From the IMG/VR virus record IMGVR_UViG_3300045988_176248, positions 1-41,244 of that record: DNA of 41,244 nt. One strand, written 5' to 3'. The stretch's first letter is position 1. Each line of letters opens with the position of its first letter. A program made the position numbers and the translations under genes. The notes under the pieces are model-generated. The model made no database searches and was not told the origin of the DNA. It saw nothing but the letters and a program-made list of their open reading frames with translations. Positions 1 to 41,244 of the stretch are shown in pieces. The DNA comes from a virus.

Positions 1-55
1 TTGCTGACATTGCTGTCATAAGCATTAAGGCGGTTTTCAATGGCTTTGTCAATTA
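1..55. repeat. Terminal overlap, copy 1: 55 bp identical to 41190-41244. Indicates a circular assembly or terminal redundancy.
   Basis: Direct comparison: ttgctgacattgctgtcataagcattaaggcggttttcaatggctttgtcaatta is found at both ends of the window. Confidence 0.95.
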
Positions 56-422
56 CACTGGTTGCATCATACAGGGCTTTGCCGTAAGCACGCTGTGCTA
101 CAGAGTTAATGAAGTTTCCCAACTTACTTGGGTCTTGCATCAGCTCAGCAGCGTCGTACTCGACTCCGTCAAGGAAGTTCTGCTTAGCTACATACTGCTT
201 GAATACATCGCTGCTGCTCGCACCCTGTGTGCTTTGCACATTCTGTGCACTTTGTGTCCCTTGGGCACCCTGTTGTGCCGCTTGCTGACTTGTTTGAGTC
301 GGCGGCACCTGCTTGAACGGATTAAGCTCTTCCGGCGCTTCAGGTTGACTTGACGTAAAGACTTGCTTGAGTCTGGCCAAAAACCCGGCATCATCGTTTA
401 CTTGTTCGTTTTCAGTTTCCAT
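1..422 (-). CDS. Putative scaffolding protein, 5' (N-terminal) part. The gene crosses the circular junction and continues at 41189 down to 40913.
   Basis: ATG at 422-420 is preceded by GGAG (ggagtaaaataaATG). Hand translation gives METENEQVNDDAGFLARL... and the frame stays open to position 1. With position 1 equal to 41190, it is in frame with ORF 40913..41128 (offset 483 nt = 161 codons). Total about 232 aa, Q/A-rich and acidic, located between portal and capsid genes. Confidence 0.6.
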   Translation of the reverse strand, partial: METENEQVNDDAGFLARLKQVFTSSQPEAPEELNPFKQVPPTQTSQQAAQQGAQGTQSAQNVQSTQGASSSDVFKQYVAKQNFLDGVEYDAAELMQDPSKLGNFINSVAQRAYGKALYDATSVIDKAIENRLNAYDSNVS

Positions 423-440
423 TTATTTTACTCCTTTATT

Positions 441-2345
441 CTAAATGTTTTGACTGTTTTGGTCAACAGGTATTTCCTGCTGCTGTTGCTGTTGTGCCAT
501 AGCCTGCTGAAGTAACTGGTAAGCTAAGTTCCTCTGCTGGATTGGCAGTGAGTCAATCGGTGACTCTTTCTTAAACATACTGAAGTCTATTTGGTGCCCT
601 GTCAAGCTGCTCTGGTAATCGAACAACTTAGTTAAGTCGTATTCCTGGGCGACTTGCGGCAACTGGATTAACTTGTTAATGAATGTATCCATCTGCTGAG
701 CTTTTATATCTCTATCCACTCCGGTCATAGCAGTGGTAATTGAGTACATAACACCGCGGCCGCTGAACTCGCCTACTGCGGTGGGAACATCATTGCCTTG
801 GTCATCCTTAACTGGCAGGGTAGCTTCATGGTCGAAAATCGTCTGGATGTGAATTGACTTCAACGGTGTAATTAACATCGCCTGAATTTGCCGCGCCATT
901 AGCTTCGTAGCCTTACCCGACGTCTCAAGTGCCTTTTTGGCCTGCCACTCAGTTGCTCTGTCAAGGCTGCTCATTAAGCTGGCTTGGTCAGTCGGCATAA
1001 TAATCTGCATTATGTTCTTCATCTGGTTGATGTCACTTAGGATATGCTGTGTATCCGGTGCATCATTGAAGTGCATAATTGCAGAGCCAAGTGACTCATT
1101 TGGCTCAGACGACACCGGAATCCACGGGCACTCTTCATCAGCTTCCTTAGCTTTGGTGATTTCATTGAGCGATATGCGGTTGCGGTCGTAGAAATTGAGC
1201 CCGTAAACTTTCTTCCGGTCGCCTTTCTGCTTAGTGTTAATTAAGAAGTTTATGAAACATTGAACCGGAGTGAGATTTTCGGCCGGAGCAACTCCAGGGA
1301 ATATCGGGGCCACAACTACGGGAATGACTCCATTGGAACTGACTTCTGCATTAACCAGCGTCTGTCCGATGTAAGTCAATTTAAGCAGCGTCTTAGTAAG
1401 CGGCTCGAGCCCGGGAAGTTCGAAGCCAAGTAACTCAGGGCAAACGCGCACATAGACAGTTGTCTTGTTAATGAAGTTCTCTCTTGTAATGTCGCTATCG
1501 CGTTCGGTGTCGTGCGGAAGAGGGTTGAAGTCAAGTATGTACTTGAAGTCCCTTGGGTTGTTCATTGAAAAAACGGCTCGATAGCCGGCTGTTCTACTGC
1601 ACTCAAGTAACTCAGAAAGTTCCTTGTCCCCGACTTCGGGGTGCAAGGCTTGATTGAGAATGTCTGTTTTGGCGATGCTCTCAACATAGGCACAGAAGTC
1701 GCCACATTCACTGAAAGAGCGCATATCAGTCAATTTACTGAAGTACAGGCAGCCGGGGTTAATTAACTTTAGATTCACACCGAACGCCGGATTCTCCGTG
1801 ATGCCCTCGACGTTGAACTGGTTAATTGAGTCCTTATCCCAACGAGCTTCCACAGCGGCAATGCCATAATGGAGTATGCACTTGAACGCCTGAAGTAACA
1901 CGTTAAAATGGTCGAACCTCGTGAAGTCCTGACTCATACGCTCCGCCACCGCCGCAACATACTTCTGGTTATTTGGGTTGCCGAAAGCTGTGTAGCTGTC
2001 ATTGGAACTAATGAGTAAATTGACTAGGTCTGAGGCAGCTTCATTAAGTTGGGTTGCAGCAAGTGGCAATTTAATCTCACTGCGGTTTTTCATCTTACTT
2101 AACGCATAACGCGTAATGCGGTTTACGAGCTCCTGAATGTTGCCGAGCCCTAAAGAGCCACTCCGAGTTACTCCATCATAGCGGTCAATTGAGCTGCTTC
2201 GGCCATACAAGTCAATTAACACCCTATCGCAAAGGTGCACCAAGTCGTTGGTCGAGTCGCTGCACATGCCGACAAAGTGGCTGCAGTAACTTCGCAACTC
2301 CCTTGACTCACTGTAAGCCTTAAAGTTTTCTACTGGTATAAACAT
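441..2345 (-). CDS. Portal protein
   Basis: 634-aa ORF immediately downstream of the large terminase gene and upstream of the scaffold and capsid genes. Size and position are typical of portals. Q-rich C-terminus. No motif-level proof. Confidence 0.7.
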   Translation of the reverse strand: MFIPVENFKAYSESRELRSYCSHFVGMCSDSTNDLVHLCDRVLIDLYGRSSSIDRYDGVTRSGSLGLGNIQELVNRITRYALSKMKNRSEIKLPLAATQLNEAASDLVNLLISSNDSYTAFGNPNNQKYVAAVAERMSQDFTRFDHFNVLLQAFKCILHYGIAAVEARWDKDSINQFNVEGITENPAFGVNLKLINPGCLYFSKLTDMRSFSECGDFCAYVESIAKTDILNQALHPEVGDKELSELLECSRTAGYRAVFSMNNPRDFKYILDFNPLPHDTERDSDITRENFINKTTVYVRVCPELLGFELPGLEPLTKTLLKLTYIGQTLVNAEVSSNGVIPVVVAPIFPGVAPAENLTPVQCFINFLINTKQKGDRKKVYGLNFYDRNRISLNEITKAKEADEECPWIPVSSEPNESLGSAIMHFNDAPDTQHILSDINQMKNIMQIIMPTDQASLMSSLDRATEWQAKKALETSGKATKLMARQIQAMLITPLKSIHIQTIFDHEATLPVKDDQGNDVPTAVGEFSGRGVMYSITTAMTGVDRDIKAQQMDTFINKLIQLPQVAQEYDLTKLFDYQSSLTGHQIDFSMFKKESPIDSLPIQQRNLAYQLLQQAMAQQQQQQEIPVDQNSQNI

Positions 2346-2362
2346 ATTAGGTACCTTTCTAT

Positions 2363-3889
2363 TTATAAACTACTTGCTGCCGCGATTCGCTGTAACAACT
2401 CACTTGAGTATCCGGACTTACTTAACTTCCGATTTTTGGCCGTCTTGATTTTCTCGAGGTGCAACTCAAGCATCTGGCAGCCATAGGCCTCTACGTCGAT
2501 TAAGTCGTCTGAATTGTCTTTGCACGTCGGGTCGAAGGCAAGTAACTGAGTAATGGTTAAATTATCATTATCACTTAAATGATATACACCTTGGTAAAGT
2601 AAGTCAACAAAAGATTTTATCCTAGATGCTTTGCTTTTCTTGAGCGTTTTTAGCGGGACATACTCAATTAAACCGCTGCTTCCATTCACTGAGTCCATGT
2701 ACTCGAACATTGATTTCAAAGATGCTTGATACGCTTCGGCTTCGAAGCCCACAATTGAGACATTCCACTTACTGCACATATCCTGCATTGCGGCGTACAA
2801 AGCAACTGGTGATTCTCCATAGGCCACCCTTGAGTCGACTATCTGCCAATGAGGTGTTGGAGTTTCATAGTAGCAATGGACGGCCATTGTTTGTGCGTGT
2901 CCCCAGGCCGCTTGGCTGATTGCAGGGTCAATTGTGATGAATCCATATTCATGCTCACTTGACTCAGGGTCTACCTTAGGGCTTCGGGTGATTCGTTGCA
3001 AGTCAATTGACAGCGTATTTGCAGCCACGGGGTCATTGAGCATTTCGGCACACCACTGCCCAGCTAATCCCTTGCTGGCATACTCGTTGTATTCAGCTAT
3101 GAGGTCAGCGAAGCTGTTAAGCTCTGGCCACAAAGGGGTGCCATCTTGCTTGAGTGCGCTCAACTTAATTGACGCCCATTTCGGGCTCGCGCAGTTCTCG
3201 TTGACGATGCTGTTTCTGTTGACGATGTTGCCCAACATAATTAACCGCCCCTGAGGGCTCAGCGCCTTAATGCAGTCAGAGAAGAACCAGCGCTTCAGCT
3301 TGTCGAAGAGGATTTCGGATTCATTCTCTTGGCGGTCTTCTAGGTCGTCAACTAACAGCACGTCAATTCGGCGGTTATTTACGTTGTAGCCTCGAATCTG
3401 GCTGTTTGCACCAAAGCTGCTCATATTGAATGTATGTCCATTAAGTTGGAATGAATATTCGCCGCGGTCAAGCTGCTCCTTAATGAACTTGGGCACTCCG
3501 AAGGCCGCCATCATAGATTCAGAGCAAATTAAGTTCCGAATGTCCATTAAGGCCTTTGTGGCAAGAGGGCTACTGTGGCTCAGATACCCAATGTTCATAT
3601 CTGAGGCGGCACCGTGAATTAACCGGCTAACAGCTATCTTGGCAATTGTCGTCTTGGCGTGAGAGCGCGGACAAGCAACACAGACCCTCTTAATTGACTC
3701 ATCAATAAAAAGCCGGAACATCTGCAAATGGAACTCCGGTGTGGGCAAGAGGTCATCACCTGCTTGAGCTCCCAAAGCAAATTGAATGTAGGCTGCTTCA
3801 CTGCCAAGCAGCGTCTGCCGCAATTCTTGTGCATTAACTTCGTATAACATGTTCGCTCCCTGCTCACTGCGTTCGCATATTTGGTTCAT
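2363..3889 (-). CDS. terL: Terminase large subunit. The true start may be the ATG at 3850.
   Basis: Walker A-like CPRSHAKTT, Walker B VLLVDDLED, and RNaseH-like nuclease signature ITIDPA in the C-terminal half. The ATG at 3850 (MLYEV...) has a better SD (gggagcgaacATG) than the one at 3889. Confidence 0.9.
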   Translation of the reverse strand: MNQICERSEQGANMLYEVNAQELRQTLLGSEAAYIQFALGAQAGDDLLPTPEFHLQMFRLFIDESIKRVCVACPRSHAKTTIAKIAVSRLIHGAASDMNIGYLSHSSPLATKALMDIRNLICSESMMAAFGVPKFIKEQLDRGEYSFQLNGHTFNMSSFGANSQIRGYNVNNRRIDVLLVDDLEDRQENESEILFDKLKRWFFSDCIKALSPQGRLIMLGNIVNRNSIVNENCASPKWASIKLSALKQDGTPLWPELNSFADLIAEYNEYASKGLAGQWCAEMLNDPVAANTLSIDLQRITRSPKVDPESSEHEYGFITIDPAISQAAWGHAQTMAVHCYYETPTPHWQIVDSRVAYGESPVALYAAMQDMCSKWNVSIVGFEAEAYQASLKSMFEYMDSVNGSSGLIEYVPLKTLKKSKASRIKSFVDLLYQGVYHLSDNDNLTITQLLAFDPTCKDNSDDLIDVEAYGCQMLELHLEKIKTAKNRKLSKSGYSSELLQRIAAASSL

Positions 3890-3946
3890 TTAATATTCCG
3901 GCTATTCCACCAGCTACTTCACTAGCTGCTCTAGCCTCGTCTGGAT

Positions 3947-4678
3947 TCATCTGGATTCTCCGGTGGCGCTTGATGGCAAGTCAATTAAGTCATCAACCTG
4001 CTTGAGCATCTCAATGCCAGCTGGGCTCGTTGCCTCGGCCTGCCGCACGGGTTCAAAGTAAGCTTCTATCTCAGAGCCGCCTCGAGCAAGTCGCTCCATG
4101 TCCTTAGCGGTGAATACGTCGAGGACTTTGCTGGAGGCACCTTGGGTGCTTGAGGTGCCCTGCACAGGTGCAGTTAATTGAGTTACTGATTCCGAAACTG
4201 GCCCCGCCGCGGGCCCCGCATTTACAAGTGCATTGACGACTTGTTGATTAAGCTGCAGCGTGATAGTCTTAGCTCCTTCGACCAGTTGCTGCATAGCCTG
4301 CTGCTTGCCTTTATGCGACCTAATTGCCTTGTTTGCAACGGCCGCAGCCTTGAGGGCGAAAACAGGGTCGGGACGTGAATTGAGTTCCCCAAGGACATTC
4401 TTCAAAGCCAGTACTTCCACTTCATCCCACTTACTTGAGGCGTCAGCCGAGTTCAGGCGCTCAGCCGCTTCCTGCTGGGCAATTAACTGTTTAAGCTCAG
4501 GAACTTCCAAGAGGTCAGCAAGCTGAGCAGGTTCGAGGTTCAGGAAGTCGGCCATCATTGCTGTGGGCATTCCAGAGTTAATTAACTGCACCAACTTACT
4601 TCGCGCCCCTGCATTAAGTGATTGCCATAGGCTTGCGCCGTTTGCAGAACTGTTGTTTATTTCATTGCCGTTTTCCAT
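3947..4678 (-). CDS. Putative terminase small subunit or DNA-binding packaging protein
   Basis: 243-aa ORF directly upstream of terL. The N-terminal segment LVQLINSGMPTAMMADFLNLEPAQLADLL looks like a helix-turn-helix. The assignment rests on position only. Confidence 0.4.
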   Translation of the reverse strand: MENGNEINNSSANGASLWQSLNAGARSKLVQLINSGMPTAMMADFLNLEPAQLADLLEVPELKQLIAQQEAAERLNSADASSKWDEVEVLALKNVLGELNSRPDPVFALKAAAVANKAIRSHKGKQQAMQQLVEGAKTITLQLNQQVVNALVNAGPAAGPVSESVTQLTAPVQGTSSTQGASSKVLDVFTAKDMERLARGGSEIEAYFEPVRQAEATSPAGIEMLKQVDDLIDLPSSATGESR

Positions 4679-5561
4679 CTTCCTTACCTTCCTTAACTTC
4701 TATGACCTTGTGATTCGAGATAAACTTTGTAGCCTTGTAATTAACATCTTGGAGTAAAGCCCAGCCTCGGGGCGTTCTGTAGTATGGTTCCTTAATTAAC
4801 TTCTCAAGTTCATGAAGCTTCTGCCAGATAAGCGGCCACCCTTGCTTAATTACCTGAAGCTCCTTGATGTTCCTACTGCGGCAGCACCAGCACCCAGGCT
4901 TAATTAACCCCGAAGTGTAAAGCCGCCCTATTGCCCAACCCTTCCTGCTTAACCACTCAACACAATAGGCCTTGCTGCGGCCTTCGGCGATGTTAGGGCT
5001 AATTAACTTGAAGTTTTTGAGCACGGGCACTGAGAGGCGGTTTAGGGTAAGCTCAGCTGACCTTTCTGACGTACAGCCGAAAATTAGCTGGAACTCCAGC
5101 TGCTTCTCAGCAACTTTCTTCAAGTACTGCTCTTTAAGGTACCTGTTGATGAGAAGCCACTTAATTGACTCACCCCATCTCAATTTGCCACCGCACCAGC
5201 CGCGGCCCCGCTGCAACCGCTGTACGAAGCCCTGCCATTGAAGATTCTTTGAAGCATCTAGGGGTCTGTAGAGCTTCTCGATTGACTTATGCAGCATCTC
5301 ATACTCAAGGCGGCCTTGCAGCTCAGTAAACTTAATTAACTTCTCTCTGCAAATTGCCTTGAGTGCCTCGGCCGCCTGCTCCTGTTCTGGCCACTCGAAG
5401 CCCAAATTGACATAGACAAGTTCATCGCCTTGCTGCAGCTCACCACGCTCAAGTAACTTGCAGAAGGCCATTAGCGCCCCGGCACTCATTTTTGCCAGTA
5501 ACACCTTAGTGGTTTTGCGGCTCGTAGCCTCGTCGCTTGATTCTTCATTGATTAAAGTCAT
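4662..5561 (-). CDS. Hypothetical protein: first gene of the minus-strand block, basic and Trp/Cys-rich
   Basis: 299-aa ORF with a strong SD (ggaggaatcaagcaATG), about 25 nt downstream of a sigma70-type promoter. Its stop overlaps the next gene's start by 17 nt. No recognisable motif. Confidence 0.7.
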   Translation of the reverse strand: MTLINEESSDEATSRKTTKVLLAKMSAGALMAFCKLLERGELQQGDELVYVNLGFEWPEQEQAAEALKAICREKLIKFTELQGRLEYEMLHKSIEKLYRPLDASKNLQWQGFVQRLQRGRGWCGGKLRWGESIKWLLINRYLKEQYLKKVAEKQLEFQLIFGCTSERSAELTLNRLSVPVLKNFKLISPNIAEGRSKAYCVEWLSRKGWAIGRLYTSGLIKPGCWCCRSRNIKELQVIKQGWPLIWQKLHELEKLIKEPYYRTPRGWALLQDVNYKATKFISNHKVIEVKEGKEDGKRQ

Positions 5562-5584
5562 TGCTTGATTCCTCCTATTTAGCT

Positions 5585-5613
5585 AGCTTACCAAATAATT
5601 CGGCAGATGTCAA
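5585..5613 (-). promoter_or_regulatory. Sigma70-type promoter driving the minus-strand block
   Basis: Read on the minus strand: TTGACA, then a 17-nt spacer (tctgccgaattatttgg), then TAAGCT. The spacer ends in TGG, matching the TGn of an extended -10. It sits just upstream of the SD and ATG at 5561. Confidence 0.6.
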
Positions 5614-6081
5614 CATAGTAGCTGTGGCAAACTTATAGTCAATTAGCCATTAAAGTTGCTCTGGCATCTCTGGCAGCTTCTGGTAATTCGAGGCCGCTGG
5701 CAAGCAGCGGCTGACCAGCCGAAGTCAATTAGCTTCCCAGCCAGAAAGCCACCTCAGAGCATCTATGCTGCTTAAATGTTAATGATGCACCAACACAATT
5801 AACTACCAAGATTAGCCTAAGGTTCCTGCTTAGCCGGTTACTCGAGTTTCGCGGCAAGCCGCTCTGGCCACTGCAGAGTTAATTGACTTGTGAAGCTAAT
5901 CAACATCACAAGAAACCAGCCTCGGAATATGTCAATTAGGTTACATCCGCTGGAATTTCAATTTTCTTGCGAATTTGCGAAGGGTACATTTATATACGCC
6001 GGAGCCCCTAGCTTGTCTTTGGGGTGCAATAGCCCCTTTTGCTGGTGGGTAAAAAATTTTTGGTATTCATTGATTTTTCGC

Positions 6082-6110
6082 TTGCAATTAAAATTGAACT
6101 CTGGTAGAAT
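6082..6110 (+). promoter_or_regulatory. Sigma70-type promoter driving the plus-strand early/replication block
   Basis: TTGCAA, then a 17-nt spacer (ttaaaattgaactctgg), then TAGAAT, again with TGn immediately before the -10. It lies 63 nt upstream of the first plus-strand ATG (6173). Confidence 0.6.
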
Positions 6111-6172
6111 ACCCTTATATAAGCAAGGTTACCTATATATTGTTCAACAGAATTTTTTGAGAGGCTACTAAA

Positions 6173-6535
6173 ATGAATAGAATGATTAAAAGTAAAGCTA
6201 CAACCGCAACCGCAACAAACACAATTGCTTCAGCGTTAATTAAAGCCGTGCAAGTCAACGGCTACGACTACGAACAGCAAAAAGTGTTACTTGATAAACT
6301 GGCAATTTGCACACAAGAGGCCGGCGACGGTTACGGCATCATATTTTACTTTACGGATTATTCCGCAATTGAGTGCAACGACTTAACAAAGTCATTTACC
6401 GAATTTTACGGCGCGCGGCGTGATTTTGCGGAGATTGCAATGCGGATACAGTATTTTAACGGCTGTGCCGCCGATTGCCCCGCTTATTTACGCAACGACC
6501 TTTTAACGTGGTTAAAGGAAAACGACGCTGAATAA
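6173..6535 (+). CDS. Hypothetical early protein
   Basis: 120-aa ORF with SD gagagg 8 nt upstream. First gene after the plus promoter. Confidence 0.65.
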   Translation: MNRMIKSKATTATATNTIASALIKAVQVNGYDYEQQKVLLDKLAICTQEAGDGYGIIFYFTDYSAIECNDLTKSFTEFYGARRDFAEIAMRIQYFNGCAADCPAYLRNDLLTWLKENDAE

Positions 6536-6549
6536 TTATCGCAAGGCTT

Positions 6550-6582
6550 GCCGGTAGCCTTTAATTAAACCGGCTTTATTCT
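6550..6582 (+). terminator. Candidate weak intrinsic terminator
   Basis: Stem gccggt / accggc with a 13-nt loop that contains TTAATTAA, followed by tttattct. Confidence 0.35.
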
Positions 6583-6671
6583 ATGCGCCTTAATCGGTGC
6601 GCCTCTAAAATTGAACCGGCGGTAAACGCCGCCTAACGTAAACTAACTTTTAATTAAAAGGAATTAAGAAA

Positions 6672-7409
6672 ATGGAAAAAGAAGAAATTTTGAATGAATT
6701 AAATAGAATCAGTGCGGGTGATGCCGTACGTGTTGCCGTTGATGACAGTGGCAATTTAGTTGCCACTGTTGCCGGTGAATCAGCAAAAAGCGTATCTGTC
6801 CGTGTTATTGACGGTATTTCTAACCGTCAATTAAGTTGTCGTTTGATTAAGGATAAGCAGGGAAAATATGATGTGCTTTATACGAATATACCGGACGTAA
6901 TGGAAGTTGCTGGACTTAATGACATTTGCCGTGAATTCGTTGAAAAGTATTTTTTAAGCAATTATATCCGCAAACTGCTTACGCTTCCAAATCTTAACAA
7001 CATCGTGGATATTCTCACCCCGCAGAACGGCGGCAACGCCCAAGCTAACCCGCTTTCTAAGCCGTTCAACGCTCTGGTTAAAGCGCTGGTTGTTAGCCTT
7101 AAGGCTAATATGCCGGCAAAAGCAAGCTTGATTAATGAAAAGACGGTTAAGACTTTCTTAGCTGACTTGCAAGCCGCTAATCTTATCTTAGGCAACACCA
7201 CCGTGAAGGGTAAATCGGTTACCGTTGCCGACTACATTAAAGCTTTGATTAAGTGGCATTGTGAGAAGCAGAGCCCTAACGCCGTCAATTTCGCACACGG
7301 GGTGACTTTCTCACTCGATGATTATATTAGCTATGCGGTTGCGCTTGCCGCTAAAGCCGTTGACCGCAAAGTCGAAACAAGCATTGACGAAGATGACTTA
7401 GATATCTAA
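6672..7409 (+). CDS. Hypothetical early protein
   Basis: 245-aa ORF with SD aaaagga upstream. No recognisable motif. Confidence 0.7.
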   Translation: MEKEEILNELNRISAGDAVRVAVDDSGNLVATVAGESAKSVSVRVIDGISNRQLSCRLIKDKQGKYDVLYTNIPDVMEVAGLNDICREFVEKYFLSNYIRKLLTLPNLNNIVDILTPQNGGNAQANPLSKPFNALVKALVVSLKANMPAKASLINEKTVKTFLADLQAANLILGNTTVKGKSVTVADYIKALIKWHCEKQSPNAVNFAHGVTFSLDDYISYAVALAAKAVDRKVETSIDEDDLDI

Positions 7410-8204: not shown

Positions 8205-8291
8205 GCCTTCGGCCTTCGGCCTTTGGCCTAACTTGCTTAACAAGCACCTAATTAGCACTTACTTAACTACTTAACCTAAGTAACTTCCCTT

Positions 8292-8343
8292 AAAAATAGT
8301 ACTCACTTTGGACAAAATTTTCTGTCTGGGTGAGTACATTTTT
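8292..8343 (+). terminator. 52-bp imperfect palindrome followed by a T-run: candidate terminator of the early operon or a regulatory hairpin
   Basis: Arms aaaaatagtactcac...gtgagtacattttt with an inner pairing gacaaaa / ttttctgtc. Followed by tttgtc. Confidence 0.4.
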
Positions 8344-8376
8344 GTCTAAATTCAAACTTAATAAGGGCTGTAAAAT

Positions 8377-8449
8377 CGGTAATTAAGTTAAAAGTTGCTC
8401 AATGCACTCGGAATCCGACTGCATTTACCAAAAAATAAGTTAATTACCG
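8377..8449. repeat. 73-bp imperfect palindrome centred on 8413
   Basis: Outer arms cggtaattaa (8377-8386) and ttaattaccg (8440-8449) are perfect complements. The core tcggaatccga (8408-8418) is concentric with them. By hand alignment 28 of 36 positions pair. Confidence 0.7.
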
Positions 8450-8640
8450 ACTGGACGCACGTTATGACCTTTTCTACTAAGTGGTTTTTCAAGGTTAATT
8501 AACACTTTTTTCTTGACAGCCAGCCTCGCTTAGCTTCGCTGCGCTCAGCGACTCAATTAATTTCAATTCATCATAAAAGTTAATCGAGCCTATCGGCTTA
8601 ACACAAGTGCTCTGCACATTAACATAAAGAGGATAATTAA

Positions 8641-16539: not shown

Positions 16540-16563
16540 GTGGGTGGGCTTCGGCTCACCCAC
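16540..16563 (+). other. 10-bp stem with a UUCG tetraloop upstream of the polymerase gene (attenuator or RNA-stability hairpin)
   Basis: gtgggtgggc - ttcg - gctcacccac, with one G-U pair. The downstream sequence is only moderately T-rich. Confidence 0.5.
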
Positions 16564-16609
16564 TCAATTAACTTATCTAGTTTCAACCTCGTAAATCGGG
16601 TATAATAAG

Positions 16610-21898: not shown

Positions 21899-21909
21899 GC
21901 AAAAAGAAA

Positions 21910-21944
21910 GGGTGGAATCAATTAAGATTCCACCCTATTTTTGT
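21910..21944. terminator. Bidirectional Rho-independent terminator between the convergent blocks
   Basis: 10-bp stem gggtggaatc / gattccaccc with loop aattaa. Flanked by aaaaagaaa on the left and tatttttgt on the right. A second small GTGCAC hairpin follows. Confidence 0.85.
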
Positions 21945-21981
21945 GTGCACAGAGTGCACTTTATTTGCGACCGTAGGTCGC

Positions 21982-31165: not shown

Positions 31166-31176
31166 CTTTAATCCTC

Positions 31177-32748: not shown

Positions 32749-34800
32749 TTACGCCGTGGTGTCATATTCGGCTTCGATATTAGCTATCCATTGAGGCTCG
32801 TAGCCCGGAAGTGCCGCCGTTGAATTATACCTAAGTGAACGCCGCAAGGCAATTAACTTATATGGAGCACTCGACTCTTGGAATACACCATCAGAATTAT
32901 CAATCCAGTAAGGTGTTATAGCTGAGCCATTAACTGTAAATTCGACGCCAGTTACCAACGAGCCGTAGCTTGAGTCAGAGCAGTCAATTAGCAGCTCAAA
33001 AGTAATTACCGCATCATCCGGAATGCCAGCCGGAACTGTGATAGCAACTGGCAATTTAGCACTGCTGTTCATATGAGTTACTCGAATCGTATAGTGCTTA
33101 ATCTGGTTATCAAGAGTAACCGCAGCACTATCAACAGCGCTAATTTGAGAGTTCCTTGACATCACTTTCTCGGTTGCGGCGCAGAGCATATTGGCCGTAA
33201 ATGTACTTCCAGAAGTCCATTCAGATGTTGCCATAGCAAGCGAGCCATTGGAGTCGATTAGAGGCCACTTAGTTGAATCTGACAAAGTGTACTCAGAATA
33301 ATCATCTCCTGGGTTCTTAGCCGCTACTTCAATCTGACCGCTAAATGTACTTCCAATCCCAAGTGAGCCAGTTGCAACAGCAATGTAAGGTGCTGATAAG
33401 CGGGAAGTAAAGTAAGCCGAACTTAATGCGTTACCAGATGAAGCCATATCCCAAGAATCATATTGAATATTTCCGTTAAGGATAGACTTAATTCTGTACA
33501 TATATAATCCACGGTTAATTGTACCGTTATTCGGCAGAGTTACTTGACCGCTGTCAGCAAAAATCCACCCACCAACTTCTGGTGTTAATCCCGAGAATAG
33601 GGCCGAAAATTCCTCAACAGTGTTTGGTACGTCATTAAAATCACTTAGTACGCCATAAATGGTTTGGTTAATCGTGATATTCTGTGAATTACTGACTTCA
33701 GCAACATTAGCCATCTGGCAGATAGTTAAGTCAGCAGAGCACACAATGAACTGGTCGAGGTAAATTGCGCGGCTGCTTAACTGGCTTAGGTTCCAATTAA
33801 GGTCTTTCAAGCCAAGCTCCGCTTCTTGCACAGAGGTAAACAGCTGGCTTTCGTCAGAAACCTGCTGAAGCAGCAAGAGGATTTGGCCAGTTTCAATTAA
33901 CACCAACCGAAATACCACAAATTTACTCGTGCCGTTACTTGAGTCAAGCAGAGTTTTCGCGCTCGTTGTTGTATTGTAATAATAGGGTTGAATATTCGGT
34001 TGAGCAGTTTCGCCATCATGGTCATAATTAGGGTAGTAATATTTGAAGTTAATTGACGACATAGCCGGAAACAGCTTACGGTCAGGCCGCTGTGAATTAC
34101 CGGCGTAGTTGATGCCTTCCTTAATTAAGTCGAAACTTTGGCAACTCAAGCCCTTGGCCGCATCCGAAGAAGTTACTTGAGCGGCGAAGTTAACTACCAT
34201 TATAGGGTGGTCGCGGCCAAATGTACTTGAATCAGCCAAAAACGGCCGCACTGAAAGTTCCGAGGCCGTTAAGTCGCCATCTGCATTAACATAGATGTTG
34301 CACAGTGCTAAGTAGATGTCATAATCTGATGTGCTTATTTCTCCAATGCCACTTTCATTAAGTCCAACATAAACAACTTGGCCTGCATATTTGGGCCCAA
34401 TTGTGATAGTTTCTTCCTGATGTTGCACCAAATCCGTGCCGTCAAACCACTGGAAGGACTTAAGTAAGATGGTATTAGTCGAGCTAACCGTGGCAATATC
34501 GGCCGTATAGGGTTTGGTCAGCCCAATTAACAAGTCCTTCTTTTTCGGCAATGCAGCTGCATTTGCACCAGACTCTGCGGTAACAGATGACAGCTGGTCT
34601 TCAAGTTCCTGAAGTTCATCTGCTACTTTACTTCTAACTGCATCGGCCGCCACGTTATTCATATCAGCACGAGCCAAGTCAATTCTAGTGCTGTTCAAGT
34701 AAACGCTAAGCGTCTGGCCGGTTTCGGTGCTGATTTCACGGTCGTTGTAATCAACACCATCTCCAGTAACATTAGCAATTTGTAAAACGCCCTTGCTCAT
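32749..34800 (-). CDS. Putative tail fibre or tail spike protein
   Basis: 683-aa ORF in the fibre cluster. S/T/N/G-rich. N-terminal coiled segment VADELQELEDQLSSV. Confidence 0.45.
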   Translation of the reverse strand: MSKGVLQIANVTGDGVDYNDREISTETGQTLSVYLNSTRIDLARADMNNVAADAVRSKVADELQELEDQLSSVTAESGANAAALPKKKDLLIGLTKPYTADIATVSSTNTILLKSFQWFDGTDLVQHQEETITIGPKYAGQVVYVGLNESGIGEISTSDYDIYLALCNIYVNADGDLTASELSVRPFLADSSTFGRDHPIMVVNFAAQVTSSDAAKGLSCQSFDLIKEGINYAGNSQRPDRKLFPAMSSINFKYYYPNYDHDGETAQPNIQPYYYNTTTSAKTLLDSSNGTSKFVVFRLVLIETGQILLLLQQVSDESQLFTSVQEAELGLKDLNWNLSQLSSRAIYLDQFIVCSADLTICQMANVAEVSNSQNITINQTIYGVLSDFNDVPNTVEEFSALFSGLTPEVGGWIFADSGQVTLPNNGTINRGLYMYRIKSILNGNIQYDSWDMASSGNALSSAYFTSRLSAPYIAVATGSLGIGSTFSGQIEVAAKNPGDDYSEYTLSDSTKWPLIDSNGSLAMATSEWTSGSTFTANMLCAATEKVMSRNSQISAVDSAAVTLDNQIKHYTIRVTHMNSSAKLPVAITVPAGIPDDAVITFELLIDCSDSSYGSLVTGVEFTVNGSAITPYWIDNSDGVFQESSAPYKLIALRRSLRYNSTAALPGYEPQWIANIEAEYDTTA

Positions 34801-34824
34801 TTTCTATCCTTTCGTCAATTAAGT

Positions 34825-36105
34825 TTAATAAATCCGCATCCGCATAAAGTTGCTGAAGCTACTCTGGTTGTAGCCCCAAACTACACAATTATCTCTGTAG
34901 GCCAAACCATTCTTATTAAACCGCACGCGGTAATTAGCAGGAATGATGAATTGGCCGCTCGAGCAACCAGAGCTGCTTCCGGTGAAGTGGCCGTAAAACA
35001 GATGGTTTTCTAATTGAGTGCCATTTGGGCTAGAGATAATTATGTTGGCTGTTGAACCACCTGGCCCTGCAGCAGTGGCACTAATGAAGACTGGCTGACT
35101 CCACGATTTGTTACTTGTGAACAGCGACCCGTTGTATAGCTCTGAGGAGTAATTCGGGGCGCCGTTTGACGAGGTAGACCTAATTAACGGTCGAACACAA
35201 GTCGAAGCCCCTTTGTCCCAAATAAAGTAACTTCCTTTAATAGTACCATTGTTAGTTGAGCTGTGAGTCTTAGTAGCTATTCCTTTAGTTCCTCCAGAAT
35301 CTAAGTAAAGCTGCATCTGGGCTTTAAGTGGGTTCATCATAGAAGTGAGGGTCGTAGTGCCGCCATCGCAGGTTACGACTCCATTGCCTTCCAAGTACTT
35401 AAGCGACTCAAAAGCAGTCCACATGGGTTGCTGAGAATTTCCACTCGAGTAATCTCCCTGGAAAGTATCTTTGAAGCAAGCGGCAGTGTAATTACCAATG
35501 TAGACGGAGCCAGCTCCGGTAATGAAGTCAGTGCCACTAACGGTTCCATCTACAATGAGTTTGCAGCCTTCTTCAATTGTCAAGGTGTACGCACTAGAGC
35601 CAATTAAGTTGAAACAGTGCAAAACGGCTCCACCTGACAGCGTCACATTACCAACCATATTGAATGTGGCATAAGGTGCTTCGACCCGTTTTCCAGCGAA
35701 GCTACTTAGGTTGGCATTTGAAGCATCTTGGCAAAAAATGAACCCACTTGAGTCAGCTGCTGCAGCGCCGCCCAGTGACACCTTTGCTAATTGAGGGTTA
35801 TTTCCAGCCAGCACATCGTTGCCGCCTTCGCTGATGAAAGTTCCTTCATAGGTGTTTAAGGCCAACTTAGTTACAGGAATATTCTCAAGCTGGTTGATAA
35901 TATCAGATGAAGCTACGTTGCTAAAATCGGCCCGAGCAAGCCAATGGCCTCCTGGAGTGGCGCCATCGTGAATTGCCACTGTCCAGTTTCGAGTGTCAAC
36001 GAAGAACTCTCGAGGGTTATAAACTGCATTGATTTCTTCCAAGTTACCGGAGCCCAACTGCGAAATTCGGCCTTGGTAATCACTATTAGGTAATCTATCT
36101 GTCAT
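34825..36105 (-). CDS. Tail fibre protein with an Mtd-N-like N-terminal domain
   Basis: REFFVDTRNWTVAIHDGATPGGHWLAR closely parallels, from memory, the N-terminus of the Bordetella phage BPP-1 Mtd protein (REITVDTDKNTVVVHDGATAGGFPLAR). The rest is G/S/T-rich. Confidence 0.6.
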   Translation of the reverse strand: MTDRLPNSDYQGRISQLGSGNLEEINAVYNPREFFVDTRNWTVAIHDGATPGGHWLARADFSNVASSDIINQLENIPVTKLALNTYEGTFISEGGNDVLAGNNPQLAKVSLGGAAAADSSGFIFCQDASNANLSSFAGKRVEAPYATFNMVGNVTLSGGAVLHCFNLIGSSAYTLTIEEGCKLIVDGTVSGTDFITGAGSVYIGNYTAACFKDTFQGDYSSGNSQQPMWTAFESLKYLEGNGVVTCDGGTTTLTSMMNPLKAQMQLYLDSGGTKGIATKTHSSTNNGTIKGSYFIWDKGASTCVRPLIRSTSSNGAPNYSSELYNGSLFTSNKSWSQPVFISATAAGPGGSTANIIISSPNGTQLENHLFYGHFTGSSSGCSSGQFIIPANYRVRFNKNGLAYRDNCVVWGYNQSSFSNFMRMRIY

Positions 36106-37924
36106 AAATAAGACCTCCCTTAAATAAGTTAAATTGTATTCCTGTTATCTCACAAAAGCCTTTTACAGCATAATTGAGCATATGGTAAATGCCGGTGTTA
36201 TAGATGTTTCCTACAAGACGACGCCCAACGAAGTATTTGTCCTCAATTGACACCTTGTGATGAGGCAAATTGCCGTAGGCGTCAGTTGAAGATGTCAAGG
36301 TAATTGACACATCATAGCCCATTGAAATGTTCTGGTTCCACTCGAAATCAGGTTCCTGGGTGACGGCACAATCAAGCTGGGGCGCTTGAAGCTGGCAGTC
36401 CCAAATGAACTCCTTTCTGTTACTTGACATGTTGGTGTCAATTCGGGTTATAACCGTAGTGCACTCGATGGGGATTTCTGGCGCGAAGCTAATTGAATTA
36501 AACTCAAAAAACGCATCCACTTTGTCAATGCGCTTAGCTTGCTGATAGACATCTGTTTCAAAGCCGCAACTTAATTCAAAGCCGCTACTCCATGTATTGT
36601 CATAATCATTCAAGTCAACATCAAAGGTGCTGTCATTTAGATCTTCATTAAGTAAGCTGTCATTCAGGTCTTCATCGAATACTGCTGGTAATGGCGGCTT
36701 GAAGCCACTAAATGTTGGCTCGAGTTTATCAACTAAATGCGTTATGACTGCATCAGCGAGCGGCAATTCTGCATAGAGGTTAATTGAGGTGCACATCGTA
36801 TCCGGTTGCTCAGCTGACAAGCTTCCAATTGACTCAACGTGCAACCTGTTGCCGTAGTAGCTTATTTCATTAAACTCTGTATTGTAGGCACTGCGGTACT
36901 CGAAGTTCCAGAAGTGCTGGAAGTTAATGAAGTTGAAACCACGCACAGCAGTTAATGAGTGCTGCACCTTGAAAACGCGCCCGAGTAGCAGGTCAATGCC
37001 AAGTATGTTTCCGTAGTAATTAACAACGAGATAGCGAGTTTCCAGCAAGTCAAGGTATTCGATGTCGATGCCGATTGAGTTGAAATAGTCAATTAACATC
37101 TCATTTACGACCTTGAACCCACCGGAACCCAAAGAGCCCAAATCTTCGTAGCTGTAAAGGTTCTTGTCAGAGTCAATGAAGTATACAATACCAAAGGTGC
37201 TAGTTAAGCAGCAATCTCTATTAAGAATCCGATGCTTACTAACTTCCTTGAAATTGTAAACCAAAGCCGTGTTTAGCTCGGTGGCGCTAATTACATTATC
37301 CGATGTGAACACCAGAAAGCCGTTTTTCTTCTTAGCCAAGGCAATTCCCTTGCCAGTGCTAAGTGAGTCCAAACTCTGAAAACCGGCTCCAGTGGTTGTA
37401 CTCGGCTGGAAATCATCTCCATTACCAACGGCACTCCAAGCTATGACATCGTCGCTCAAGGCAATTAACCTATTATTCGTAGCACAGATGAACTTGGTGC
37501 TCTGAGGGAATCCCGTAGGGCTGATTTGCTGAATAGAGTTAATTAAATGGTCATACTTAAACAGCACTTGGTCACAAAGGATATAGTAATAGGAGCCAAT
37601 GTAGTCCACGCTTACATTTTCGGCATCGCTGCTAAGCATCAACAACACAGTTCCATCGCCCGTATCGGCTGAGTACCTGTAAATGTACTTGTTTGTGATA
37701 ATTAATTTACCAGCATCATCCTGTAAATCAACTACCTTTTTCAGCTCGACGTTCCTTGAGTACGGCATAAAAAACAGCGGCTTGTAGCCGAGGCCAGTTG
37801 AGTAGCCATTGTATGTCGGGATAATGTTCGAGCCGTCTGTTATGTTAAGTTGATTGCCTTCTACCCTATCATAGGTTATATTAGGATTGAATATCAATAA
37901 GTTCTTATTAACTATCGAAACCAT
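36095..37924 (-). CDS. Putative tail tubular / nozzle-type structural protein (by position)
   Basis: 609-aa ORF downstream of the capsid and adaptor-sized genes. Contains the short tandem acidic repeat EDLNDS / EDLNDS / VDLNDY. Confidence 0.3.
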   Translation of the reverse strand: MVSIVNKNLLIFNPNITYDRVEGNQLNITDGSNIIPTYNGYSTGLGYKPLFFMPYSRNVELKKVVDLQDDAGKLIITNKYIYRYSADTGDGTVLLMLSSDAENVSVDYIGSYYYILCDQVLFKYDHLINSIQQISPTGFPQSTKFICATNNRLIALSDDVIAWSAVGNGDDFQPSTTTGAGFQSLDSLSTGKGIALAKKKNGFLVFTSDNVISATELNTALVYNFKEVSKHRILNRDCCLTSTFGIVYFIDSDKNLYSYEDLGSLGSGGFKVVNEMLIDYFNSIGIDIEYLDLLETRYLVVNYYGNILGIDLLLGRVFKVQHSLTAVRGFNFINFQHFWNFEYRSAYNTEFNEISYYGNRLHVESIGSLSAEQPDTMCTSINLYAELPLADAVITHLVDKLEPTFSGFKPPLPAVFDEDLNDSLLNEDLNDSTFDVDLNDYDNTWSSGFELSCGFETDVYQQAKRIDKVDAFFEFNSISFAPEIPIECTTVITRIDTNMSSNRKEFIWDCQLQAPQLDCAVTQEPDFEWNQNISMGYDVSITLTSSTDAYGNLPHHKVSIEDKYFVGRRLVGNIYNTGIYHMLNYAVKGFCEITGIQFNLFKGGLIYDR

Positions 37925-38433: not shown

Positions 38434-38438
38434 CTTAA

Positions 38439-38585
38439 TTAACCTCCATTCTGATTAACGCCCGCAGCTTCTTCGAGGGCTTGAAGCCGCTCTTCAATTA
38501 TCTGCAGGTTATAATTAAGTTGCTCTATTAAATCATTGCTCTCTTCCTCATAGAGAGGTAATTGGAGCGTTTTTACATCAGCCAT
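38439..38585 (-). CDS. Small hypothetical protein (48 aa)
   Basis: The internal ATG at 38585 has a strong SD (agaggaggtaattgagATG). The longer track ORF (to 38708) overlaps the upstream gene by 107 nt. Confidence 0.45.
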   Translation of the reverse strand: MADVKTLQLPLYEEESNDLIEQLNYNLQIIEERLQALEEAAGVNQNGG

Positions 38586-39333: not shown

Positions 39334-39352
39334 CTCAATTACCTTTCATACG

Positions 39353-39388: not shown

Positions 39389-39399
39389 AATTACCTTTG

Positions 39400-39717: not shown

Positions 39718-39739
39718 ATAAGCACCTCCTAATTGAAAA

Positions 39740-40891
39740 TTATTCCAAGTAGATGTTACTCAGAACACCACCCGTATTTTCATCCGCATACTCAAGGGTG
39801 AGCTCAGAGGTAATTACGTTGGCCTGACCGTCCATACCTACCGGAGTCGCGTCCTTGATTTCGGCGTCGGTCATATAACCAATCTTAATCAAGCCCGGGT
39901 GGTAAACCAGCATCGATTTGTTAAGCGACTCAGTCTGGCTGAACAGCGGGTGAGCAAGAATCTTAACTTCCTGCATTCCAGGCAACTGAAGCGCATAAAC
40001 GTCGAGGCCATATACTTTAGTCGCAGTCCCAATCGGGTAATACGAGCTGCCAGCATCTCTAATGAGTTTATTAAGAATATAAAGTACATTGAGAGAAGTC
40101 ATAACGACGCGTTCATTAGGAACACCCTCGGGGCAGGTCTCGAAGTTACCGTACAGCCATTCCTGAATTGAGTCCAGAGTTGCAGCAGCGGCCAATGCAG
40201 TGTTGTTTTTAACAATGCTCATCAAGCCGTCCATCGTACTCAGCACTTCAGAGCCATCAACCTGATTAAGAGATTTACGGCCAAGCAGCAAAGCCATCTC
40301 GATGTCCTGTGCGTGCATTGACACGGCATCTTCTTTATTCTCCGTTGCCTTGTTTCCAGTAATGAACTTAATGTACTCAGCTGTGCGAGTCGTGCCCCAG
40401 CCATTACGGAAAATCTGGCTGTAATTCATACGGGGAACGCCACGGCGGTACTTAGGATTCGGTGCCAATGAACCTTCTTTTTTGGCAGTACCCAAGTAAA
40501 GCAGTTCGTCATTCTGAGTTACTGCGGCTGCCGTCGATTCAGCAAAGCCACGAACGACAGTCAGGGTGTTACCGGACACGGCGCTAACGAACATATATTC
40601 ATTAGTCTTGGTGTTCATAATCACCGAAGACGGTTCAACCACAGCACCTTTATCTACTGTGATGGAAGTTGCTGTGTTGTTTGCCGCAGCCGAGGCAATT
40701 AACTTCGAGCTATACGGCTGCTTCATGAACCAGTAGTGGATTTTGGAAGTCAGCTGAAACTGAGCGGAACCCGAACTCAATGCGAATATCGGGGCAGTAC
40801 CGGCCAGCTGAGACCGGAACAATTTACTATTGAAGCTATCAAGCCGCTCAGCATTGATACCTCCTTGAGATGAAAAGATTCCTGGAATCAT
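39740..40891 (-). CDS. Major capsid protein
   Basis: 383-aa ORF with strong SD (aaaggagtaaatagATG), immediately after the scaffold-like gene and followed by a strong terminator. Size fits HK97-fold capsid proteins. Assignment by position. Confidence 0.65.
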   Translation of the reverse strand: MIPGIFSSQGGINAERLDSFNSKLFRSQLAGTAPIFALSSGSAQFQLTSKIHYWFMKQPYSSKLIASAAANNTATSITVDKGAVVEPSSVIMNTKTNEYMFVSAVSGNTLTVVRGFAESTAAAVTQNDELLYLGTAKKEGSLAPNPKYRRGVPRMNYSQIFRNGWGTTRTAEYIKFITGNKATENKEDAVSMHAQDIEMALLLGRKSLNQVDGSEVLSTMDGLMSIVKNNTALAAAATLDSIQEWLYGNFETCPEGVPNERVVMTSLNVLYILNKLIRDAGSSYYPIGTATKVYGLDVYALQLPGMQEVKILAHPLFSQTESLNKSMLVYHPGLIKIGYMTDAEIKDATPVGMDGQANVITSELTLEYADENTGGVLSNIYLE

Positions 40892-40912
40892 CTATTTACT
40901 CCTTTGTTAAAT

Positions 40913-41244
40913 TTACTTACTAATCAACAAGTTACCGAAGAGGCCATCAAGGTCTTTACGATGCTTGTCAGCTGCTTTTTCCTCAGCGCCTTTACTTGAT
41001 AGCTTGTTACTGAAGTCCTGCAAAAAGGTCTTAGTTGCTTCAGTTGCCTCGTCAAGCGACTTACCCTGCTGCAAAAACCCTTTCATTACCTGAGTAATAA
41101 TCGGGGCGGCACTTGGGTCTTTCATCAATGGAATCTCCCGAGTGGCCTTGTCTAATTGACTCCTGCTTGAAACGGCCGCCTGAATCCTGTTGCTGACATT
41201 GCTGTCATAAGCATTAAGGCGGTTTTCAATGGCTTTGTCAATTA
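40913..41244 (-). CDS. Putative scaffolding protein, 3' (C-terminal) part. Continuation of 1..422 across the junction; 41190-41244 duplicates 1-55.
   Basis: Open frame through 41129-41244 on the minus strand, in phase with the ATG at 422. The track shows only the internal-Met piece 40913..41128. Confidence 0.6.
   Translation of the reverse strand, partial: IDKAIENRLNAYDSNVSNRIQAAVSSRSQLDKATREIPLMKDPSAAPIITQVMKGFLQQGKSLDEATEATKTFLQDFSNKLSSKGAEEKAADKHRKDLDGLFGNLLISK
41190..41244. repeat. Terminal overlap, copy 2: identical to 1-55.
   Basis: Same 55-mer as positions 1-55. A minus-strand ORF reads in frame across the join. Confidence 0.95.

Follow-up and report, generated by a model that had tools for sequence, protein, structure and literature searches.

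The genome of a phage represented by IMG/VR record IMGVR_UViG_3300045988_176248 ("the window" throughout, meaning the whole 41,244-base stretch analyzed) carries 96 copies of a degenerate palindrome, TYAATTRA, against about one per constituent octamer, or ~4.4 in total, expected from order-0 and order-1 composition. The motif is written at the level of DNA, cannot be put down to codon usage or peptide content, and has reshaped the proteins in which it lies. Comparison with relatives suggests that selection keeps it, acting on the number of sites rather than on their positions, while sister lineages carry words of their own. We lean tentatively toward an explanation in which a dimeric protein, probably one of the phage's own, recognizes these copies in double-stranded DNA as an array of sites peculiar to the lineage, with the array serving as a self-label.

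A dense palindrome with symmetric flanks

A sequence-only reading had described the window as saturated with a highly iterated degenerate palindrome on the strength of hand counts, and exact counting reproduces each of them: 21 copies in 1-6840, 6 in 8641-10431, 12 in 21982-27297, 4 in 34825-37924, 3 in 32749-34800, and 2 in 31177-32730. The positions it listed for TTAATTAA and its estimate of ~45% G+C content (GC; measured 45.07%) are likewise correct, and the excess is stronger than was first noted. The total of 96 is made up of TTAATTAA (36), TTAATTGA (30), TCAATTAA (22), and TCAATTGA (8), and the eight commonest octamers of the window are all fragments of a single longer word.

The extent of that word is evident from the flanks, into which, as the same reading had proposed, the symmetry continues. 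An S base stands at −1 in 92% of the 96 sites and at +1 in 86%, flanked in turn by A at −2 in 54% and T at +2 in 51%. The S flank accompanies both TT and TC half-sites, and A occupies −1 in only 3 of 192 half-sites. The proportions of the four octamers match those expected of two independent half-sites (sense-oriented TTAATTGA and TCAATTAA number 22 and 17). From these symmetric flanks and half-site proportions it follows that the word proper is a dyad of 10-12 bp, (A)S-TYAATTRA-S(T), of which the 10-mer S-TYAATTRA-S is the functional unit. The 10-mer occurs 79 times, or ~2 per kb, against 0.97±1.16 (maximum 7) in dinucleotide-preserving shuffles—an over-representation of ~80-fold—and the 12-mer ASTYAATTRAST alone accounts for 21 copies. 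As a perfect, self-complementary dyad present on both strands, the motif lacks the asymmetry and strand polarity of Chi-type signals.

The distribution along the genome is near Poisson, with no regular spacing or periodicity (coefficient of variation of the gaps 0.82, largest gap 1915 bp), and scans for promoters and terminators gave no more hits in association with the sites than in shuffles. One-mismatch variants are frequent (CTAATTGA 14, TTCATTAA 15, TTACTTGA 14, and AAGTAACT 18 copies), the commonest being A-to-C changes at either central A of the motif.

A DNA-level signal that has reshaped proteins

Codons hold most of the sites: 78 of the 96 lie in frame 0, seven in the x-CAA-TTR-A frame, one overlaps a stop, and ten are non-coding. 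As the sequence-only reading had stated, the motif occurs in genes on both strands and in non-coding DNA, where 2597 nt contain nine octamers against 1.17±1.06 expected and five 10-mers against 0.25. Its further claim, that the excess does not arise from amino acid or codon composition, also stands. Synonymous codon shuffling within genes leaves 16.8±3.6 octamers where the coding sequences hold 86 (z=19). Codon usage as a cause could be rejected: the window's usage is unremarkable (TTA makes up 24% of Leu codons and ATT 58% of Ile codons), and if codons were drawn independently at these frequencies, 4.85 frame-0 sites would be expected where 78 are observed. We could equally reject avoidance of GATC and CATG as a force on codon pairs, since this forbids only xxG-ATC and cannot yield 60% TTA-ATT.

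The test that the earlier reading had offered for its own refutation, a model preserving codon pairs, does not remove the excess. Under a first-order codon Markov model both the 10-mer (66 observed, 28.0 expected) and the 8-mer (78 observed, 54.3 expected) are still over-represented; the test is itself partly circular, as the model already holds much of the motif signal. A maximal-order Markov model appears to explain the TTAATTAA octamer (36 observed, 31.5 expected) because its 7-mers are pieces of the longer motif.

The depth to which the word is written into genes is best appreciated from the positions that could hold it. Among 100 frame-0 positions where the octamer is synonymously reachable, 78 are filled, 66 of them as the full 10-mer; in the other open frame (xST-CAA-TTR-ASx), six of ten reachable 10-mers are realized, a proportion like that of frame 0. 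The motif spans four codons, and the third base is S in 94% of the codons preceding a site and in 90% of the last codons, compared with 50-52% generally. Beyond codon choice, [L/S]-I-[D/E/N/K] tripeptides are in threefold excess, numbering 100 where shuffling within proteins leaves 34.8±5.6 (z=11.6). Of eight control tripeptides, six match expectation or are only mildly raised (z≤1.9), and a one-mismatch neighbor, F-I-[DENK], is modestly enriched (17 versus 7.6).

These data bear most directly on a reading at the level of RNA or translation, whether through codon-context optimization, an mRNA-binding factor, or selection for off-frame stops. One frame does hold 78 of 86 coding sites; TTAATTRA gives TAA or TGA in both alternative frames of both strands, the words of relatives (below) all contain TAG, and a palindrome reads alike in mRNA from either strand. 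Against this stand the non-coding enrichment and the equal realization of the 10-mer in the second frame. The S flanks, the A at −2, and the T at +2 have no rationale in stop codons or decoding; TTA-ATT is preferred over CTA-ATT by 77:9, though CTA-ATT gives the same off-frame stop; and the control tripeptides are not enriched. In addition, the TAGCGA word of one relative (L018) lies on both strands and is as dense in non-coding as in coding DNA. Reading at the RNA level is thus largely refuted, and we regard it as very improbable indeed.

Sites are conserved among close relatives and turn over between lineages

Within the clade, 14 IMG/VR relatives at 89-96% nucleotide identity to the window were compared, and the same motif excess is present in 14 of 14. 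Third codon positions have diverged by 2.4% inside sites and by 17.8% elsewhere. The third base of ATT differs in 0.6% of comparisons inside sites and 10.4% for the same codon elsewhere, and that of TTA in 0% and 16.0%, respectively; for the first base of TTA the values are 8.0% and 12.9%. Toward the edges, where the flanking S falls, divergence is 8.2% at the third base of the RAN codon (13.3% in the same codons elsewhere) and 6.9% at the third base of the preceding codon (17.8% over all third positions). There is, in essence, a gradient of constraint in which the core is tightest and the outer T and flanking S are held less. Selection appears to keep the motif, judged by how strongly the synonymous positions inside it are constrained.

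Individual sites are less durable than the array. Across 22.5 kb common to 15 genomes, the union of sites numbers 63, of which 30 are fixed and 33 polymorphic, with CTAATTRA the commonest lost allele; each genome nevertheless carries 40-50 sites in this shared sequence (28 in one partly covered relative). At the greater distance of the sister lineage L015, six orthologous proteins share three of 34 sites, 18 being confined to the window and 13 to L015. At unshared sites the orthologs carry other residues or codons, and non-synonymous substitutions have created sites. Similarly, the large terminase (TerL) gene has four frame-0 sites, none at matching positions in orthologs. As sites turn over between sister lineages and counts hold steady, it is density, not position, that appears to be maintained.

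Short-term conservation combined with long-term positional turnover is also what a restoring drive would predict, and we weighed the possibility that the word has no function for the phage and is restored by sequence-specific mutation or repair bias, such as very-short-patch-like correction or biased gene conversion among co-infecting relatives. One-mismatch variants are common (CTAATTRA, TTCATTAA, and TTACTTGA), and the phage has recombination genes (AAA_24, PD-(D/E)XK, and the RecD-like helicase). A drive of this kind was once proposed for HIP1, the highly iterated palindrome of cyanobacteria. Conservation evidence of the same type was, in the case of HIP1, taken to favor selection (PMC5861425). 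Here, the threefold change in protein sequence and the site-creating non-synonymous substitutions would need a drive able to overcome purifying selection in many proteins. The narrow band of 40-50 sites in all genomes speaks for maintenance, and no correcting enzyme, whether Vsr-like or the partner of a methyltransferase, was found among the scanned proteins. Such a drive strikes us as improbable.

Sister lineages write other words

Comparison with sister lineages, covering roughly half of each genome, extends the phenomenon beyond a single sequence. The tree derived from identities among portal, capsid, and terminase proteins is ((window, L015), L315, L313), L017, L018. The closest lineage, L015/L016 (TerL 68% identical to that of the window, GC 35%), shares S-TYAATTRA-S, with 21 10-mers in 21.5 kb against 0.8 expected. 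L315 (positions 1-20960, TerL 67%) shows no TYAATTRA excess and has instead a second palindrome, K-CTA-N-TAG-M, with 39 copies of CTASTAG against 2.6 expected and 24 of CTAWTAG; L313 (1-12309, TerL 59%) likewise lacks the TYAATTRA excess and shares the K-CTA-N-TAG-M word. In L315 and L313 this palindrome is sometimes written CTA-GTA-GAx at homologous Leu-Val-Asp/Glu positions where the window has TTA-ATT-GAx.

More distant lineages have asymmetric words. L018 (1-21539, TerL 39%) carries 110 copies of TAGCGA in 21.5 kb, together with 181 copies of CTAG. TAGCGA is less enriched in L184 (TerL 41%) and in L185 (1-21332, TerL 39%), the latter having in addition CTAGCCCAG, in 21 copies. CTAGCCCAG/GCTGGGCTA shows a 15:1 sense-strand bias that switches strand where the gene arms diverge, a distribution that is polar and Chi- or KOPS-like. 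We take its G-rich strand to resemble E. coli Chi. No comparable word was found in L017 (TerL 44%) or in environmental relatives (TerL ≤37%, normal GATC content).

Avoidance of restriction sites does not follow these words. The window has nearly lost GATC (3 versus ~100-157 expected), is strongly depleted in CATG (33 versus ~133-158), and lacks TTTAAA (0 versus 6-29), with the same avoidance in its close relatives; this pattern looks like lineage-specific restriction avoidance. L015 has 0 GATC and 0 CATG and keeps TTTAAA (26 copies), while L315 keeps GATC (39) and has 0 CATG and 0 TTTAAA. As lineages with a common word differ in these avoidances, the word appears, on these comparisons, to follow phage phylogeny rather than the restriction environment.

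The motif is absent from scanned cellular genomes at phage-like density

Viral, cellular, and metagenome collections were scanned with a pattern of three 10-mers at set spacings, which at phage-like density would be expected to give ~0.3 hits per 41 kb and ~20 per 3 Mb and which has power only at about half of the phage's motif density or more. A two-site pattern was uninformative, returning random matches. In IMG/VR the triple-site scan recovered only the window clade and one tandem repeat, and no other phage at comparable density. Across 185,579 GTDB species genomes it returned 23 stretches, each on its own contig and each a tandem repeat or an isolated chance match; none was dispersed. Among at least 120 matches listed from JGI metagenomes, dispersed sites occur only in the window clade (L373 and L404), and the rest are tandem repeats. 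A chromosome-wide trait of a cellular lineage, which is a feature of HIP1, was therefore not seen in GTDB at or above roughly half of phage density, and a host-wide highly iterated palindrome as the source of the motif was set aside on the strength of the three scans.

Where TYAATTRA clusters outside the clade, it does so in tandem repeats (periods of 9-84 bp) of unrelated bacteria, archaea, and viruses (L142, L159, L160, L162, L164, and many JGI loci among L316-L435), for instance in Marinomonas (a 9-bp unit, 45 copies) and Terrilactibacillus (a 20-bp unit).

These scans and the lineage comparison bear together on the possibility that a host factor reads the motif—a Chi-like attenuator of RecBCD or AddAB, a nucleoid or occlusion site, or the specificity of a defense or modification system—and that each phage lineage carries its own host's word. 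Lineages with different words do also differ in the restriction sites they avoid, and presumably in host; the 15:1 bias of the L185 word and its switch at the divergence point are as in Chi-type polar signals; Chi enrichment is documented in phages that use host recombination (PMC3784561); and the triple-site scan is blind below its power limit. On the other side, the window and L015 have one word and L315 and L313 another, though each pair differs in GATC/CATG/TTTAAA avoidance, and the window and L015 differ further in GC (45% versus 35%). Asymmetry and reading on a single strand are typical of the known Chi, KOPS, and uptake sequences, whereas the present motif is a perfect dyad with symmetric degeneracy. 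Phages sharing the host would be expected to carry the motif, yet no other IMG/VR phage group does so at comparable density, and dispersed multiple hits were found in 0 of the 185,579 species genomes. We consider a host reader unlikely.

Comparison with known systems

Literature searches found no description of TTAATTAA-type enrichment or of a phage-specific iterated palindrome. HIP1 (GCGATCGC), which the sequence-only reading had named as the closest established analog, remains the nearest described one in format, fold-excess, occurrence in open reading frames, and conservation. HIP1 is an octameric palindrome with conserved flanks, 15- to 300-fold over-represented at about one per gene, lying in and between open reading frames; its sites are conserved between genomes, which argues for selection, and its function is not known (PMC5861425). 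S-TYAATTRA-S resembles it in its ~80-fold excess, its ~2 copies per kb inside and between open reading frames, and the same conservation signal. Unlike HIP1, which belongs to cellular chromosomes, the motif is the property of a phage lineage, and none of the scanned cellular genomes carries it at such density; it is also AT-rich, Y/R-degenerate, unrelated in sequence, and without GATC, and its sister lineages have switched words. No associated methyltransferase was detected here in the scans run. Cyanophages carry HIP1 secondarily.

A second parallel lies in the nick-associated motifs of Pseudomonas phages tf and Rembedalsseter, TACTRTGMC/WACTRTGAC, a lineage-specific 9-mer ~10- to 20-fold enriched, mostly in coding sequence, and persisting across phages with little nucleotide similarity, with no known function (PMC11780129). 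These motifs are asymmetric, lie on one strand, and number ~13 per genome, in contrast to the 79-96 copies of a palindrome here; the strand-biased L185 word is the closer parallel. They nonetheless raise the possibility of single-strand signals, either specific phage primase sites (a self-complementary word serving both strands) or sites of a site-specific nickase. A density of one site per 430-520 bp would suit a process that requires sites a few hundred bases apart on each strand, density is conserved rather than position, and the phage encodes a PolA of its own as well as a primase/helicase-type protein (DUF3987). A lineage motif within coding sequence, WACTRTGAC, does mark nicks in tf and Rembedalsseter (13 copies versus 0.7 expected; PMC11780129), and the L185 strand bias would fit a lagging-strand template if the origin lies in the divergent region. 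Single-strand recognition, however, gives no reason for a symmetric dyad, and two independent lineages have palindromes. Known primase sites are only 3-5 nt long, and known nick motifs are single-stranded, with ~10-15 per genome against 80-100 here. Double-strand nicking at palindromes of such density is unlikely, as nicks on both strands of ~80 of them would fragment the genome. We hold priming or nicking to be distinctly improbable.

Chi offers a third comparison, being a short word whose density rather than position matters, a self-label for a processive helicase-nuclease, and enriched in some phages (PMC3784561). The window phage, in parallel, encodes a RecD-like helicase and a PD-(D/E)XK nuclease. 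Chi differs in being asymmetric, polar, host-defined, and ~10 times rarer per kb, and we know of no Chi of this sequence.

Operator arrays also spread a phage-specific protein-binding word across a genome in tens of copies, as in the stoperators of mycobacteriophages and the C1 operators of P1. Those are asymmetric words lying mostly in short intergenic gaps, oriented with transcription, in ~20-35 copies, and belong to temperate phages with repressors. Here, by contrast, 86 of 96 sites lie in codons, the ~80-96 copies are unoriented, and the scanned window proteins include neither a recognizable repressor nor an integrase. Finally, the motif shares the 6-10 bp palindromic format of Type II restriction-modification sites (PacI TTAATTAA, MfeI CAATTG, MseI TTAA), a format that the asymmetric 6- to 9-mers of relatives also fit. 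Phages normally deplete such sites, as the window does GATC, CATG, and TTTAAA, whereas the motif is ~80-fold enriched, and no methyltransferase or endonuclease gene was recognized in the scans.

Candidate reader proteins

Several proteins of the window may be considered as readers (coordinates in Table 1). A PP-loop ATP-pyrophosphatase-type protein is encoded by the first gene of the late operon, directly upstream of the putative small terminase. Its PP-loop is degenerate (SAGAL, not SxGxDS), whereas two motifs with cysteines of Fe-S type, GWCGG and CWCCR, are invariant. An AlphaFold2 (AF2) model has a pLDDT of 69, and its Foldseek matches are YcfA, TilS, the Fe-S thiolase NcsA, and PAPS reductase; a profile match (E=3e-7) falls on a PDB chain labeled PptA (21fy). 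In the regions covered, this is the only gene confined to the four lineages with palindromic words. On its predicted fold and these motifs a nucleic-acid-modifying activity is conceivable, and the protein is a weak candidate for reader or modifier of the motif.

The putative small terminase lies upstream of TerL and has divergent homologs at the same position in all relatives, which makes it a candidate DNA-recognition protein. The RecD-like helicase, whose gene is kept in all relatives, is a candidate component of a motif-reading helicase-nuclease machine, with the PD-(D/E)XK nuclease as its possible partner.

We also considered, and set aside, a 245-residue early protein, an orphan with an unusable AF2 model (pLDDT 44). 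It has seven clusters of relatives among 1.84 billion representative proteins, and the proteins at the equivalent position in L018 and L185 can scarcely be matched to it (E=1e-4 to 0.003), as for a fast-evolving, family-specific early gene.

A proposed label, probably read by a phage protein

The symmetric degeneracy, frame independence, non-coding sites, and core-to-flank gradient of constraint indicate that a symmetric dimer recognizes the word in double-stranded DNA and that selection acts on density. Lineage ownership, word switching, and absence from scanned cellular genomes favor, in turn, a phage-encoded reader and a self-label. In the model that we tentatively prefer, a sequence-specific protein would read the DNA as a symmetric dimer with half-site 5'-(A)S-T-Y-A-A; its specificity would belong to the phage lineage, and the reader would probably be phage-encoded. 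Selection would act on the number or density of sites, not on their positions, and the motif would be written wherever protein tolerates [Leu/Ser]-Ile-[Asp/Glu/Asn/Lys]—by codon choice, by replacement where needed, and in intergenic DNA. The likeliest role may be that of a label by which a phage machine tells phage DNA from an excess of host DNA, or coats, modifies, or spares phage DNA. Possible machines include factors for packaging or replication, DNA modifiers, and a helicase-nuclease attenuated by the motif. The candidate roles put forward by the sequence-only reading were a modification target, a binding-site array, and priming or nicking sites.

A number of observations weigh against this model. 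The words of two related lineages are asymmetric, one of them strongly strand-biased; a symmetric dimer does not account for such words, which may indicate that the whole family uses another kind of reader, single-strand or processive. Conservation of synonymous sites could also be explained by biased repair or gene conversion, and the power of the scans leaves room for a host in which the motif is enriched moderately, at less than about half of the phage's density, and read by a host protein. Among the scanned proteins, Pfam, PHROGs, NCBIfam, and PADLOC revealed no methyltransferase, helix-turn-helix repressor, or restriction-like enzyme. The similarity of the PP-loop protein among the four lineages does not follow motif type, and a link between this protein and the motif was rejected when 49 loci of other phages with distant homologs were inspected: the 46 of at least 10 kb had no iterated word (z above ~12), one homopolymer run excepted.

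It is possible, if rather doubtful, that the phenomenon is wider still, and that a family of human-gut podophages carries virus-owned "genomic barcodes," lineage words at 1-5 per kb in coding sequence, read by a co-evolving phage machine that would thereby tell the DNA of the phage from that of its host. Codon and amino acid choice would then write S-TYAATTRA-S here, K-CTA-N-TAG-M in a sister lineage, and TAGCGA and the strand-polar CTAGCCCAG in others, toward selective packaging or replication, modification, or the sparing of phage DNA from a phage helicase-nuclease. Were this to hold, it would constitute a viral counterpart of Chi/RecBCD self-recognition with a specificity that switches between lineages.

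Genome organization and gene content

The window is a complete, circularly permuted phage assembly, the contig being circular or terminally redundant: bases 1-55 recur at 41190-41244, giving a genome of ~41.19 kb, and a minus-strand open reading frame spans the assembly junction (1-440/40892-41244). Genes form two arms that diverge at 5562-6172 and converge at ~21.9 kb, nearly every one preceded by a strong AGGAGG-type ribosome-binding site, and the window has no tRNA genes. Between the convergent arms (21899-21981) lies a perfect hairpin, GGGTGGAATCAATTAAGATTCCACCC, with a TCAATTAA octamer in its loop and the top of its stem, which is a probable bidirectional terminator. Besides the genes in Table 1, a lysozyme-like protein is encoded. 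No GenBank phage matches the window at the nucleotide level, and its nearest cultured relatives by TerL are Pseudomonas podophages at 27% identity. The close TerL cluster comprises 569 member sequences, and the record of one close relative is named human gut metagenome; this origin and the strong ribosome-binding sites are the only pointers to the host. The 1771-residue late protein has no Pfam hit, nor do most other late proteins (587, 517, 683, 426, and 609 residues), and PHROG hits to them are almost lacking, such that the structural module of an abundant gut phage is essentially unannotated.

Table 1. Motif sites and selected genes of the window
Feature	Coordinates	Strand	Remarks
TYAATTRA octamer starts, 1-24	1237 1759 1822 2185 2212 2664 3003 3165 3690 3981 4174 4578 4792 4900 5161 5332 5879 6236 6561 6650 6827 7598 7923 8046		
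TYAATTRA octamer starts, 25-48	8178 8495 8553 8662 9058 9139 9589 9943 10207 10605 11058 11463 12013 12341 12714 12762 12975 13468 13669 14355 14742 14852 15088 15868		
TYAATTRA octamer starts, 49-72	16388 16564 16667 17189 17258 17330 17609 17744 17930 19161 19682 19997 20549 20711 20867 21515 21918 22160 22349 23165 23894 24044 24329 24902		
TYAATTRA octamer starts, 73-96	25283 25412 26054 26672 26936 28851 29703 29794 30192 30843 32007 32328 33893 34049 34121 34815 36243 36780 37089 37539 38091 38435 38945 39110		
Non-coding 10-mer GTTAATTGAC	5878-5887		Divergent intergenic region 5562-6172
Non-coding 10-mer GTTAATTAAC	8494-8503		Intergenic region 8205-8640; second octamer at 8553, W flank
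Non-coding 10-mer CTCAATTAAC	16563-16572		Upstream of PolA gene
Non-coding 10-mer GTCAATTAAG	34814-34823		Between two late genes
10-mer CTTAATTAAC	38434-38443		Intergenic or gene junction
Alternative-frame example, xST-CAA-TTA-ASx (Gln-Leu)	6826-6835	+	Inside gene 6672-7409
Probable portal	441-2345	-	
Large terminase (TerL)	2363-3889	-	PHROG 38, 1.4e-47; phylogenetic anchor
Putative small terminase, 243 residues	3947-4678	-	Adjoins TerL; weak SAP-domain hit
PP-loop ATP-pyrophosphatase (PAPS-reductase-like) protein, 299 residues	4662-5561	-	PHROG 424; NCBIfam PRK13795
Early protein, 245 residues	6672-7409	+	
RecD-like superfamily 1 (SF1) helicase	8641-10431	+	Six sites; Pfam AAA_19/AAA_30/SH3_13/UvrD_C_2; PADLOC RecD-like
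PD-(D/E)XK nuclease	13941-14930	+	Pfam PDDEXK_1, 1.6e-12
AAA_24 ATPase	14986-15942		
Family-A DNA polymerase (PolA)	16610-19066		
DUF3987 primase/helicase-type protein	19979-21226		
Late protein, 1771 residues	21982-27297	-	
SU10-type major capsid protein	39740-40891	-	

Implications

If the phage maintains some 80 copies of a private 10-bp palindrome, and pays for them with constraint on ~100 codon triplets and changes to dozens of amino acids, its DNA must be subject to a strong process of sequence reading that is as yet undescribed. Work on HIP1 has for decades been without the advantages found here, namely a small genome, hundreds of natural variants in public metagenomes, and sister lineages with switched words; by virtue of these, the reader could be traced by co-variation and tested by synonymous recoding. 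There are practical consequences also, as iterated words distort the codon-pair and k-mer statistics used in host prediction and binning, and the motif creates dense PacI and MseI sites. More broadly, the words could serve as lineage markers for the abundant gut phage group to which the TerL cluster belongs.

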